Shown here: piece by piece, positions 2,944 to 8,253 of the stretch
Layout: each line of letters starts with the position of its first letter
How positions within the stretch are numbered: position 1 is the stretch's first letter
Source of the DNA: Paraspadella gotoi
Taxonomy: Eukaryota > Animalia > Chaetognatha
Reading direction: 5' to 3'
NCBI GenBank assembly: GCA_051294375.1
Contig: JBJCIZ010000678.1
Span: 2,157-10,409 of the forward strand
DNA: 8,253 nucleotides
Position numbers and translations under genes: made by a program
The notes under the pieces: model-generated
Databases searched by the model: none
Told to the model about the DNA's origin: nothing
What the model saw: the letters and a program-made list of their open reading frames with translations, nothing else

Positions 2944-3458
2944 GTAAGATAGGGCGTTGAAAAATTACGAAATATAACAAATCAAGTGAGGTACATAGGT
3001 ATTTTAGTGTAATAAAGTCTGTAGAATTCGATGATGATAACCATTTTTTTGTATAGTCTCATCTTCTTTGTCGGAAATGGCGATTTTTGCAGCATATAAG
3101 TACTATTAAAATGGAGTAATAAGAAACTCAAATTATTAAGATTTTATAAAAAACATATTTAACTTACATACTATGAAAATAAAGACCCATATAAATTATT
3201 TTGGTTAATTTTATTACAAATTTTATATTTTATTAATGTTTGTTAACTATATTTATTAATAAATAATAATAAAAATAAGCTAAAGTAAAAAAGAATATAA
3301 ATTTTAAATTTTAAAACCGGAATTTGAATTCTTTATAAAAAGTTGATATAAGAAAGTATAATCCATTTTAAAAAAATTCTTTCATTTAAGTAGTGTTAAA
3401 AAATTATTAAAAGCTATTATTTTTGTGGTTATTTTCAATTTTGGCTTTTAAAAATTTA

Positions 3459-3489
3459 TCTCTGATCGAACCCCCCCCACGAAATGCCT
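3459..3489 (+). repeat. Putative left terminal sequence of the element
   Basis: TCTCTGATCGAACCCCCCCCACGAAATGCCT; the reverse complement of 4320-4349 is identical apart from one A indel. Sits at the AT-to-GC transition. Confidence 0.85.
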
Positions 3490-3769
3490 TTTGTCTCACT
3501 AAAGGCGAGACTACCGCGCAGTGCATCAGAAGAAAACAAAACAAAAAAGACATCGAAAAGTATATCTTTTTTGAGCAGCGCTGCAGCACCGGTCCGCCCG
3601 CCGCTGGCGGGGCTCCCCGAAGTGCTGCTGTGCCGACAGAGCGTCACTTCTTTTTCGCGGCGAAAAGCATCAGCCGTTTTTTTCTAACGTTTTCTGTTCT
3701 TCGCTTATTTATCGGGATTTTCTTTCTTTTTTCGATTATTTTTATCGAGATTTCAGGCGGTCGTTATTA

Positions 3770-4182
3770 ATGTCTTCGCATCACGTACGCGATGATTCTA
3801 AGAAGTCGCGCGAAAAATCGCACGACAAACACGGCGATCGCCATTCGTCGAATCTGCGAATTCAAGGGGGTTGAGGACCCCGGAGGTGCGCGGGGAAGAA
3901 CCGGCTTTCCCCGCAATGCGTCTCACCGCCCCCTCCTCCTTCGCCTCGGAGACCGGTTTCCTTTACCTCGGTTCCGGCCTCTCAGGCAGCGACACCGAAG
4001 CGCGCACCCGGCGACGCGGTTTGGGGGCGGTCAGCCAGACGACGTGCTTCCTCAAGACTCGCGTTCGGCTGGAGGCATGGAAGTCGTCGTGACTATTTGA
4101 AGGCCACCCTTGAGGGTTTCCAAGAGATGAAGGATTTTCAACGCTTCTCTTGCGTTTGGAAATGGAGGATTTTTGCCGGTGA
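3770..4182 (+). pseudogene. Possible frameshifted small accessory ORF (~135 aa) of unknown function upstream of gag
   Basis: GC-rich block between T-rich tracts. ATG 3770 gives MSSHHVRDDSKKSREKSHDKHGDRHSSNLRIQGG*, then successive frames give PEVRGEEPAFPAMRLTAP...LEAWKSS, DYLKATLEGFQEMKDFQRF and LRLEMEDFCR* (TGA 4180-4182). The first shift is at a G5 run. No homolog recognised. Confidence 0.4.
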
Positions 4183-4319
4183 GCTCACCGGGGGGGGAGT
4201 TTATTTCATTTGGTCATTTCGCATATTTCGCTTATGCCCCTCTGCTTTCCTTTTGTTTCGAAAATTTTATTTCTTTCTTTCCTTTTTTTACACCGCGCTC
4301 TCTTTTTTCTCGTCTTCTG

Positions 4320-4399
4320 AGGCATTCGTGGGGGGGGTTCGATCAGAGAATCTTAGATTCCAAATGGAATCACGATTCTTGATCGAACCCCCCCCACGA
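4320..4399. repeat. Long hairpin / ICR-like region
   Basis: Perfect 20-bp arms 4326-4345 (TCGTG8TTCGATCA-type: TCGTGGGGGGGGTTCGATCA) and 4380-4399, with inner stems AGAATC/GATTCT (4347-4352/4374-4379) and GATTCCA/TGGAATC (4356-4362/4365-4371). The hairpin is seen directly; the ICR role is inferred. Confidence 0.85.
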
Positions 4400-4582
4400 C
4401 TCTTCCCGCCGTCCACCCTTTTCACCACCGGTGTTTGGTTCTTTTGGTTCGCGGGTGTGGGTTTTTGCCGGTTGCTTTTTTTATGTTTTTTAAAATTTGG
4501 ATAATTTAGAAAGAGGAGGGAGGGGTTTTTGTTAGATCGTTTTTTATTTGATCTAATGTTGTTTTTTCGTGTTTTTACGTTC

Positions 4583-5575
4583 ATGTCACGGTTCTTGATC
4601 GACGGGATGGCCGCTCCTCATTTCTCCGCTTCTTCGTCGCTTCTCCTTGCTTCGCCTTCCGCTTCCAGAGCCCAGATCCCTGCACGGGTTTCTGCCTCAG
4701 CCTCACATTCGCGAGAGATCTCGCCTCCGCCACGTAGTTCCGGTTTGAAGCACTCCTTCCCGGATCCGGACGCCGAATCCTCCGAGGAGGGGGAGGTGGA
4801 CTCTGCTTCCGACACAGAGGGTGGTTTCAACGCCTTCCTCCCTACCGCCAAGAAGGCAGTCTCGGCGTCGGAGTGGGTCGTCGATCAGTGGCGCAGTCTC
4901 CGTCAGATTTCTGCTTCTGGGGAGTTGGTGAGGCACTGGGATTCTCGTCTCGCGACTCCCCCATCTCGCCTTCGCCGATGGGTGGATAACGCCTCTCCGG
5001 CTTCGTTCCTCCCTCCGGATCGAGATGGATGCTTAATCCATCAATTTGAAGCAGCCTTCGGCGCTCGTCCTAACGCCTCCTTTCGTCAACATCAGCGTTC
5101 GATGCAGGAGGCGGGTGCGTCTGGTCACGCGGCGCTTTACGTCGCGGATGAGCTTCGTCTGTTGGCCGAAGAGCTCAAGGAGGGTCTCTCCACGGATCAG
5201 GCCGTGGAACGTATAGGAGCTTTGGCCACGCCTCTTCGGGACGTAGCAGCGATTCAGGCGAGCTCTTTCAATTCGGCGCTTTTCGAGATTAGGCGTGCCG
5301 TTCAATCGGCGGCGTCTTCGGATCTCCGTGGCACCCTTCATGAAGCGCAGCCGACGGAGTCTCATTTCTTCGGCAACAAGGCAGACCAAGTTGCTTCTGC
5401 CGTCAACGCGTCTCTCCTGCGCGCTCACGCTTCTCGTCCTCGTTCCTTCGACGATCGCCGTCAGCGTTTTAAGGCCAAGCCTTCTTTCCAAGCACGCAAG
5501 GGAGGCAAGAAGCCTTACCCCGCCAAGAAGTCGGGAAAAAACGGAGAGCGCAGGGATGCGAAGCCCTCAAAGTGA
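4583..5575 (+). CDS. gag-like ORF1 of the DIRS element
   Basis: Uninterrupted frame 4529-5575 with in-frame ATGs at 4556, 4583 and 4607 (true start uncertain). Ser/Pro-rich then acidic N-terminus (DAESSEEGEVDSASD), helical-looking middle, ...PTESHFFG... and a basic C-tail (KAKPSFQARKGGKKPYPAKKSGK). Lies directly upstream of RT. Assigned by position and composition, not by a diagnostic motif. Confidence 0.8.
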   Translation: MSRFLIDGMAAPHFSASSSLLLASPSASRAQIPARVSASASHSREISPPPRSSGLKHSFPDPDAESSEEGEVDSASDTEGGFNAFLPTAKKAVSASEWVVDQWRSLRQISASGELVRHWDSRLATPPSRLRRWVDNASPASFLPPDRDGCLIHQFEAAFGARPNASFRQHQRSMQEAGASGHAALYVADELRLLAEELKEGLSTDQAVERIGALATPLRDVAAIQASSFNSALFEIRRAVQSAASSDLRGTLHEAQPTESHFFGNKADQVASAVNASLLRAHASRPRSFDDRRQRFKAKPSFQARKGGKKPYPAKKSGKNGERRDAKPSK

Positions 5576-6700
5576 CGGGCTGCGTCGCCGGAGCAGTCGT
5601 CGCCTCGTCCGGCTGCAGTGGCGCTTCAGGACCGGACTCCGCCCTCGGACACGTTTTCTCCAGATCCGGCGCTGCTTCCTCACCATCCGGTTGGAGGAAG
5701 GCTCCGTTTCTTTCTACCGTTTTGGACGAACTTGGTCGGCAAGGATTCGCCAATCCTTCAGAACGTTTCGGGGTTCAAGATCCCCGGGGCCGACGCCATC
5801 CCTTCACGCATGCCTCGCCCTGCAGACGAGACCCCGTCGTTCGGCGAGAGGGACGCCGCTGTGGACGCGGAGATTCTCGCCGCTCTGGAGAAGGGAGCTA
5901 TCGAGGAGGTGGAGCCTTCTCCGGGGTTTTACTCGAAGGATATTTCTCGTTCCGAAGAAGGATGGAGCTAGGAGGCCGATCCTCAACCTCAAGCGCCTCA
6001 ACACGGCTTTTCTCTCGCTCCTTACTTCAGGATGGAAGGATCTCCGACTCAGGAATGTTTCGAACGAGGCGAATTGCGGGAGCGGGCTCGATCGATCTCC
6101 GCGACGCTACCTTCACCTCCCGCTGCAACGAGGACCATCGCCGATTTTTTGTTCGGAAGGAATTTCAGTAAGTTCCGTTTGCTGGAGACGCCGGCCTAAG
6201 CACGTCATCGTAGGACAAGGCGCATTTTTCTCTACGAACGTTTTCTGGCTCGTCGGTAAGGGGTCCCAGAGGTCTAGGCATCAATATGAAAGGAAGCGGG
6301 CGCTTCATTCTTATTTGGAGAAGAATCGGAGTCTCGTTCCGTCTCAGAGCTTCGAATTTTTCTGGGCTCCATTGGGACGGGGTCTTGCCATCAAGTGTCC
6401 GCTTCCTCCGTCAAAAGCTGGAATCCCTTCGGGCGTTTCAGCAGCGTCTCTCCTCGTAGCGTCTCGCCCGAAGGCCGCTAGTGCTTCAACTTCTAGGGTA
6501 TGCAACCGGCGGCGGCTCTGGCCGTCCCTCTTCTCCGTTGTCGCTCTTGCTCGTTTCAGCGGACGGTCAATCGCGTCTATCGTTCGGAGTGGATCTCGAT
6601 CGACCGACGCCTCTGGATGCCTCCAGCATTGGAGGAGTTGGAGTGGATCGCGTCTCTTCGCCCGAGGATTGCGTGGCGCCAGTGACGATCTTCTCCGGAG
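5576..6700 (+). pseudogene. Reverse transcriptase domain of DIRS pol, frameshifted
   Basis: Motifs spread across frames: HPVGGRLRFFLPFW (~5684-5725), LEKGAIEEV..PGFYS (~5885-5935), IFLVPKKDGARRPILNLKRLN (~5942-6003), SIDLRDA/YLHLPL (~6088-6125), GLST (~6193), corrupted Y-x-D-D/WLV region (~6233-6255), FIL/LEK..SLVPSQSFEF (~6304-6360), LQLLG (~6484), LEELEW (~6629). Confidence 0.9.
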
Positions 6701-7049
6701 AGTTGTGCGCACACGTTACGACGGATGCGTCCCCAGAGGCTGGGAATCCTTTCAGGAGAGATCTCCTTCAGGGACATGGAGGATGCAACTGCCCTCTCCA
6801 TATCAATTGTGAAGGAATTCACAGTGCTGAGGATCTTCCTGAGCGCAGTTCGGCCAATTCTCTTCGCGATTCGACCCCTTCATGGAGTCCGACAGCCAAG
6901 TGTCTCTTCTCTGTCTTCGACGCACTTGCAGCCGGCCAGATCCTCCAGAGGTCGTAGAGAACTCTTCTACTCGCCCATGCTCCTGGAATTCGTCACACGG
7001 AAGTCACGTGACTTCGGAGGAAAATCTAGTTGCAGAGGCAGCGTCGAGA
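6701..7049 (+). pseudogene. RNase H domain of DIRS pol, frameshifted
   Basis: VTTDAS (6715-6732) followed by GW (6738-6743), HIN (6799-6807) / KEF, ESDSQV (~6885-6902) and SHVTSEENLVAEAASR (7002-7049). These match the TDAS / HINxxE / SDN / NxxADxxSR pattern of DIRS1-type RNase HI. Confidence 0.88.
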
Positions 7050-7069
7050 GGGCGTCTAGTGGCGGATTG

Positions 7070-7475
7070 CACCTGCTGCCCAGGATTTTTCGCCAGATCG
7101 TTCGAGCGTTTCGAGCTCCTGCGATAGATCTTTTGCGACAAGGATTCGACGCAAGTCCGCCGCTTCTTCGCCTGGAAGGCGAACCAGAAGCAGAAGAGTG
7201 GACGCATCTTGCCCCAGATTTGGATTTTCGTCTGGCCTTCCTTCTCCGCCGCCTCCGCTTCTCCCAAGCGTGATTCCGCAAGCTGGAGGAGGCATCAGGG
7301 ACCTACCTCCTGATCCAACCCCTTCTGGCCACCCAGAAGTGGTTTCCATCCTTCTCAATCTGAAGATCCTGGAGGTACTTTCGCTTCCGCTCCGGAGGAG
7401 CGCCGTCGTCGACCTCAGCACAGGTTCGCCACCTCGCAGGCGAATCGCTGAAGCTTGTCATTTGGAGGATTTTCG
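7070..7475 (+). pseudogene. DNA N6-adenine methyltransferase-like (MT) domain of DIRS pol, frameshifted
   Basis: IFRQIVRAFRAPAIDL(F/A) (~7085-7140), LAF/PPPPLLPSVI (~7232-7275), RKLEEASGTYLLIQP/FWPPRS/WFPS (~7278-7352), LKLVIWRI (~7448-7471). This is the DLFA...AFPP...PxW...WFP pattern found after RNase H in DIRS1-like elements. Confidence 0.75.
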
Positions 7476-8253
7476 GAGGGCGAACACTCGACAACCTCAA
7501 CGACGCCACCTTCGCGTCATCGCCGACAGTTGGAGGAGCTCCACTCGCGATCTGCTACGCTAGAGCCTGGAAGGCCTTCTGCGCTTCCTTCAGCGTCGGG
7601 ACGTTCGAGGACTTGAGCGTCTGTTTGAACGATGTTTTGGAGTTTTGGCCATCTTGGTGGAGATGGGCCTTTCATACAGCACTGTAAACCTCCACTCGCT
7701 ACGTTTTCGGCCACGCTGCCGCCGTGGTTCCTTCCCAGTTGGAGAGCATCCCTCGTTCGCCGTTTCCTCAAGGGCACTTTTGAACGTCGCCCCCCTTTCG
7801 CGGCGTCTTTTCCCTCCATGGAATGCGCGTCAGTTTTGCGCGTTGACTTTCGCCTCTTCCGCTGTCGCCGCCCCTCACATTCTCCGGCGCTCTCTCTTCC
7901 TCATTCGCGCTCGCTTCAGCAAGGAGGCCTTCGGAGATTGTTTCGCTCAAATGCGATCACGCCCACTTCTCTTTGGCACAGGATCAATGCGCGTTTTGTG
8001 CCCTCATCGCCTCTCCAAGACGGATCGGTCGGCCACTTAGGCCCGGCTTTTCGAGTGGATGCGCTCCCGTCTTCTCGCGCTGCCCACTCAACGCATCAGG
8101 GAGTGGCTTGCGCGTTCGCGAGGTTTTGTCGCCGGAACCATCTTTTCTTTTCTGCGCTCCGTCGCATCCCTACAAGCAGCTGTTCCGCAACGTCTTGCGT
8201 CCCATTCTCAAGGCTCTTTTCCTCGAGGCGGAAGTGACGCCCCCTCCCCGGCT
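7476..8253 (+). pseudogene. Tyrosine recombinase (phage-integrase-like), frameshifted, truncated by window end
   Basis: N-terminal binding-domain pattern VIADSWRSST..AWKAFC (~7516-7582), LAILVEMGLSYSTVNLH (~7645-7695), GEHP/LVRRFLKGTFERRP..PPWN (~7741-7824); box I ALASARRPSEI (7907-7939); LSKTDR catalytic Lys (8011-8028); HLFFS (~8140). Box II and the catalytic Tyr are not in the window. Confidence 0.85.

Follow-up and report, generated by a model that had tools for sequence, protein, structure and literature searches.

The window, by which we mean the whole stretch of 8,253 nt that was analysed, holds a left repeat, an internal complementary region (ICR), a main gag exon, pol and a recombinase gene, in this order (plus-strand coordinates unless stated). 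It is very probable that these parts form a DIRS1-like tyrosine-recombinase retrotransposon that belongs to a multi-copy family and carries a real ICR on its 5' side. The left inverted terminal repeat covers about 190 nt (3458..3647) and starts at an ATT trinucleotide, one T short in the window copy. It is followed by a region (3770..4178) with an ATG at 3770, coding-like frames, an Arg/Ser-rich start and a helix-like end. We infer that this is gag exon 1; it is frameshifted in the window copy. At the matching position two related loci, L003 and L004, carry an Arg/Ser-rich exon whose frame is open. The main gag exon (4669..5575) is an open frame whose relatives were found by profile, 30 of them at E<=0.001 in the full profile scan. 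Pfam returned nothing in these 30 relatives. In the three nearest Atlas clusters PF11560, the LAP2alpha family, is found on 11-22% of the members (scores 0.92-0.93), a match of low recognition value. The available part of PMC4495291 ties LAP2alpha to DIRS1 gag, from which it derives, and concludes by inference that a splice acceptor came with the colonising sequence.

The pol gene (5660..7522) comprises reverse transcriptase (RT), RNase H and a methyltransferase-like tail and is interrupted by about 24 frameshifts in the window copy. Aligned with the pol of the related locus L005, with X at the breaks, it is 48% identical over 577 columns (score 792, versus 156 for the reversed-DNA control), and the L005 protein itself matches Pfam RVT_1 with an E of 1.5e-24. 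The pol tail aligns with that of L005 including the FPPP and PFW motifs, which the accessible text of PMC3266345 tabulates for DIRS1-like elements; a Dam match sought with Pfam in L005 was not found. The tyrosine recombinase (7423..8253) lies 3' of pol and overlaps it. Its reading frame is broken, and the window ends before the catalytic tyrosine. Positions 7423-8247 share 45% identity with the L005 recombinase over 255 columns (score 338, control 110), which in turn matches Phage_integrase at E 2e-4, below the curated cut-off. Direct Pfam searches of 25 pieces of the window (11 ORFs and 14 fragments) gave no match, and nothing was found either when gag and a piece of RT were compared with proteins by shared words. 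Unguided scores of the window pol have a median of 624 against 52 proteins of a marine clade and of 232 against 73 other hits, within a protein pool that was picked by likeness to L005. A tree built by a quick method from 55 of 120 hits plus 7 rows places the window within this marine clade with a support of 100; since the window forms a long branch there and its reading was guided by L005, we prefer the unguided scores.

The window copy is not intact and carries many indels relative to the reads. About 37 frameshifts across pol and the recombinase mark it as decayed or error-rich. The YLDD region is corrupt, and contigs of the runs X1 and X6 carry 250 different letters in place of the 180 at 6148-6329, so that the RT core is unreadable in this copy. 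At 5761-6016 contigs that are about 80% alike, one of them at high depth, point to other DIRS families in the same runs. Three further observations concern the DNA to the left of the element. Directly beside it lies a very abundant AT-rich host repeat (3300-3375; summed contig depth >60,000 in X4). A 127-nt inverted repeat with 76% complementarity (1904-2030 and 2223-2349) is possibly a small DNA transposon, and a 15-nt tandem repeat at 1717-1820 is followed by CCTTAACC-like units.

The ICR became visible through a 20-mer that occurs three times, at 3463-3482 (+), 4326-4345 (-) and 4380-4399 (+). In 200 shuffles it was matched in none, even with 3 mismatches allowed. It is part of a perfect 25-nt inverted pair, 3459-3483 and 4325-4349, which reaches 4320 given one extra A near 3482-3484, an A that is absent from contigs of X1, X2 and X4. 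The outer left terminus (3458..3489) is complementary to the left ICR half, and on the opposite strand it matches 4320-4349 in 30 of 31 columns. The region 4310-4410 folds with -35.2 kcal/mol (z -9.6), a value equalled by 0 of 200 shuffles. The threefold 20-mer and its hairpin, which the preliminary description had put forward, are thus real. The one Rfam match, MIR171 (E 0.023), stays under the gathering score and reflects plain hairpin likeness, and in viral and metagenome contigs the 20-mer has no exact match. Near 3460-3600 the G+C content rises from 0.19-0.32 to 0.50-0.62, as expected at the edge of an element. The DNA of the host, a eukaryote, is AT-rich.

Comparison with contigs from public runs defined the ends. 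Of the eleven runs listed, nine contain part of the stretch; four were compared over 3300-8253 and two over 3445-4450. Two contigs agree with the ICR as far as 4351 or 4352, beyond which they enter unrelated DNA; these are left ends at two other insertion sites, both starting ATT-CTCTG, which makes three left junctions in all with that of the window. Because these left ends follow the ICR to 4351/4352 before they diverge, the circular-junction trinucleotide is AAT at 4349..4351, and it is common to both halves of the ICR. The left half (32 nt, 4320..4351) is the reverse complement of the left terminus. The right half (51 nt, 4349..4399) is the reverse complement of the right extension and the outer right repeat; within the right-extension part it contains a 6-bp capping hairpin (4356..4371), and the same cap is found in related loci and in two proven 3' ICRs. 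The division proposed earlier, 4320-4349 and 4350-4399 with an ATT at the join, was right in essence and in the join, except that the halves overlap on the AAT. The left terminal repeat measures about 190 nt and not 25-30 nt.

An X1 contig that matches to 4399 runs on into ATGCCTTTTG, which is the interior of the terminal repeat, and thus reads the right end in reverse. The inner 30 nt of the right terminus (4370-4399) are therefore seen directly and the outer 21 nt follow from depth arithmetic, in agreement with the terminus that had been predicted. Contigs start at 3463 and at 4370, the points where left end, right end and ICR diverge. The X1 contig over 3463-3647 has a depth of 178.8, close to the sum of left interior (67.7) and right interior (116.9), and this summed depth places a terminal repeat of about 190 nt at both ends of the element; the length of the right repeat and its right-hand position are derived from depth and contig ends. 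With a right-end depth of about 90, itself obtained from bin residuals among 8 of 10 X1 records listed, the contig over the ICR should have a depth of 58.8-64.5 if right ends share words from about 4349-4352, and its mean depth is 62.6. In X1 the ICR words have a depth of ~25, roughly one third of the 68 next to them, which we guess is hairpin dropout. Terminal and internal repeats are inverted, unlike the split direct repeats of PAT-like and Ngaro elements. Read on the minus strand, the inner end of the repeat (3600-3647) gives SVGTAALRG, which resembles VGDAAL in the recombinase tail of L013, one of the loci with a proven 3' ICR; the recombinase of the window element may end inside the right repeat, but the frame count is off by one.

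The same contigs bear on another possibility, in which a DIRS copy begins at about 4376 and 3459-4349 is merely its neighbour: an independent small element that has inverted ends of its own, or the product of a single rearrangement or of misassembly. The perfect inverted pair 3459-3483/4325-4349 and the many indels of the window copy would fit such a history. However, independent runs agree on the order of the parts and have equal depth to the left and right, the depth of the 186-nt repeat requires a right end elsewhere, and the layout is common to the relatives. In X1 the 3459-4375 module has a depth of 67.7 and gag one of 71.6; this equality means that the layout belongs to the family and not to one copy, and copies starting near 4376 without the module, which would have spoken against the preliminary description, are not what the contig depth shows. 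The contigs thus largely refute a separate element or artefact, and we consider this explanation highly improbable.

A DIRS1-like element of conventional build would carry its ICR at the 3' end, after the recombinase and before the right repeat, whereas here it occupies 4320-4399 and precedes pol. In X1, X2 and X6, runs from three studies, the contigs end exactly 200 nt past 8236, and one X1 contig covers the region from 5171 to that point. If the last 30 nt overlap the repeat, as an assumed word length of 31 implies, 170 of the 200 nt are non-repeat. By comparison with L005 about 124 of these 170 nt are needed to reach the catalytic tyrosine. This leaves about 46 nt, into which an 80-nt 3' ICR does not fit. 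The right repeat would thus directly follow the recombinase with no second ICR between them, a conclusion drawn from contig ends and depth and not from one contig. It might be argued that the 5' copy is redundant, or a packaging hairpin, and that a working 3' ICR lies beyond the window. The window does stop before the right end and no single contig runs through it. However, there is the lack of space between the expected tyrosine and the repeat. Moreover, the words of 4320-4399 would recur in a second copy, and no further contig on these positions was found among the 8 of 10 X1 records listed; nor is there a strong fold in 7400-8253. A second, functional ICR at the 3' end is therefore very unlikely, and a conventional 3' ICR, which would have contradicted the earlier proposal, has no room.

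The preferred reading, a single ICR at the 5' side, was so far described as an ICR upstream of gag. The 5' position stands, but the ICR most likely lies inside the first intron of gag, where splicing is predicted from the sequence. The predicted intron 1 (4179..4668, CCG|GTGAG ... TTCCAG) contains the ICR, consists of 41% T, has stops in all three frames and no AG from 4536 to 4667 (132 nt), and ends in a pyrimidine-rich acceptor. GC-rich, coding-like sequence stretches between repeat and ICR, from the ATG at 3770 to the donor at 4178/4179, and homology to other gag proteins starts at about 4673, right behind the acceptor at 4668. In the exon 1 of the window copy a frameshift means that the phase with exon 2 is only argued. 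A short internal duplication (4123-4178, EMKDFQR/EMEDF) ends at the predicted donor and suggests donor phase 2, in keeping with the acceptor at 4668. In the bin that separates its two copies the contigs are about two bases shorter. An opposite-strand joint of 3490 and 4320 in X6, a run that is RNA only by guess, most likely follows words that the two places share and was left out of the splice evidence.

Related loci were fetched by gag alignment. This gave 10 loci from metagenome contigs, with pol that matches RVT_1. Three of them reach the 5' region (L003, L004 and L008) while the other seven start further 3'; the same alignment found no gag relatives in viral contigs, where two loci (L011 and L012) matched weakly when pol was aligned instead. 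In L003 and L004 a GTGAG donor is followed by a hairpin of 77-79 nt, a micro-exon, a second intron and the main exon, and the predicted three-exon joins are open and in frame. L008 starts after the donor and has the hairpin at the homologous place. The length of the 55-nt middle exon is kept, with synonymous changes, in L003, L005 and L008. GTGAG donors stand at the matching place in the window, L003 and L004; intron 1 has phase 0 in L003 and phase 2 in L004, and the donors are therefore matched by place and not by exact homology. The hairpin is the strongest fold of the 5' region in all three informative relatives (z -6.8 to -10.8). Its build, a long outer stem capped by a hairpin of 6-7 bp, is shared by the relatives, the window ICR and the 3' ICRs of L013 and L014, and it is by this build that the hairpins of the relatives are ICR-like, as none of their contigs holds a terminus. 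Between L003 and L008 all 27 of 27 pairs are kept, 7 by double change, a count from two sequences with the structure drawn from the same two. The inner part of the hairpin is 59% identical in this comparison and the rest of the intron 87%; this inner part thus diverges faster. Since L003 and L008 are close kin (87%), the relatives amount to two independent lineages besides the window. On these grounds an intronic 5' ICR is probably common to the marine clade. In one lineage the predicted intron 2 contains a short hairpin that is conserved, together with another small palindrome (L002 37-71, L004 789-822 and L007 ~238-272); positions 1-46 of L007 are presumably sequencing adapter at the contig start. 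The 5' end of L003 was considered as a partner for the 3' end of L005, but the two do not match and belong to different families.

The relatives also help to weigh an ICR that is real and 5' but belongs to a leader that is never spliced, or to the space separating two ORFs, with no intron and no splicing switch. There is no RNA joint among the contigs compared, ATGs near 4583 and 4607 lie in frame with the main gag exon, and exon 1 is broken in the window copy, all of which would suit such an arrangement. Against it stand the GTGAG donors at the matching place in the window, L003 and L004 together with strong acceptors, in-frame three-exon joins in two lineages with a length-conserved micro-exon, and gag homology that begins right behind the acceptor. 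We therefore consider an unspliced leader unlikely and favor the intronic position.

The loci L013 and L014 serve as canonical controls. Their ICRs are 3' and the halves match their own termini. The best 5' folds have z -4.4 and -5.2 (15 and 19 pairs) versus -7.9 and -7.0 (29 and 30 pairs) for the 3' ICRs. Both loci come from a bacterial MAG and group with fish elements, which is probably host contamination. In each a donor-like GTGAGT lies just after the left repeat (~82-90 in L013, ~253-262 in L014). The marine relatives keep their second intron without an ICR in it. This second intron and the GTGAGT of L013 and L014 indicate that a DIRS intron can persist with no ICR. Introns have been reported in some vertebrate DIRS elements.

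For the mechanism we follow the model of Cappello as given in the available part of PMC7192593, where neither outer end is present in the RNA, the cDNA pairs through its repeats and the ICR acts as the template from which the missing ends and their join are made. According to the same text, deletion of the ICR of DIRS-1 left cDNA synthesis intact and stopped transposition, and a marker intron near the 5' end yielded unspliced cDNA, which makes copying of an unspliced RNA plausible. In the window element an unspliced RNA that starts in the left repeat would give minus-strand cDNA, the two repeat copies would pair, and the ICR copy in the loop would template the missing outer ends across the AAT join, after which the recombinase could insert the circle at an ATT. 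The ICR would lie in the same loop as in canonical elements, near the other side of the stem. The preliminary description had called for a modified replication model. This seems unnecessary: the two halves have canonical order and strand, so that circularisation would need no new chemistry if transcription starts 5' of 4320. What would change is that splicing of 4179-4668 yields a Gag mRNA and removes the ICR. As loss of the ICR stops transposition of DIRS-1, spliced RNA is predicted to be a dead end and the intron to be inherited. We consider it probable that 4320-4399 is an ICR within a predicted intron 1, that it is a likely template for end joining and that only unspliced RNA would give rise to new copies. 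The broader proposal, that a clade common in marine metagenomes moved its ICR into the first gag intron, that splicing sorts the RNA into spliced message for Gag and unspliced genome, and that the intron thereby became hereditary, is tentative, and we place it slightly below an even chance.

As far as the available part of PMC7192593 goes, no cis element other than the ICR has been shown to be essential when DIRS elements transpose. A natural 5' ICR would show that its position is free and hence offer a direct test of the circularisation model: an ICR that acts in priming or early strand transfer should fail at the 5' side, while one that acts in late end repair should work there. If the ICR is intronic, it would provide a simple answer to how a retrotransposon retains a spliceosomal intron and tells its mRNA from its genomic RNA. 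Annotation based on a 3' ICR, or on a gag in one exon, would set the bounds of this clade wrong by about 0.9 kb.

With DIRS1-like elements the window element shares the order gag, pol and recombinase, inverted terminal repeats, the ATT start and the AAT overlap. As far as the available text of PMC3266345 goes, ATT is the commonest start and end trinucleotide, and the right extension of 31 nt falls within the 9-75 nt of the elements described there. The ICR halves of 32 and 51 nt compare with 33 and 55 nt in DIRS-1 of Dictyostelium. DIRS1-like elements have one and the same trinucleotide at either end and make no target-site duplication; in the contigs the left ends start with ATT. Unlike in DIRS1-like elements, the ICR precedes the main gag exon, at a distance of about 0.86 kb to the left end, and a predicted intron surrounds it; in the accessible parts of the literature it follows the recombinase motif in 28 of 28 tabulated elements (PMC3266345) and the recombinase in the text of PMC8969392, and the available parts of PMC9210276, PMC2685390, PMC6681497 and PMC3783388 give no other ICR position and do not mention introns. 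We found no 5' or intronic ICR in the literature searched, a search that covered neither Repbase nor the subscription papers of Goodwin and Poulter. In PAT-like elements and Kangaroo the internal repeat can move, and the accessible text of PMC4157794 places it between methyltransferase and recombinase in the nematode form of PAT and in Kangaroo. However, those repeats are direct and, as far as the sources available describe them, their moves stay 3' of the RT, while the window element has inverted repeats with the internal copy 5' of pol. Ngaro elements are also tyrosine-recombinase retrotransposons, but in the descriptions available they have split direct repeats (A1-B1-A2-B2) and no ICR. The window element works as a DIRS1 element but departs from the described layout, and it is thus a variant of this group.
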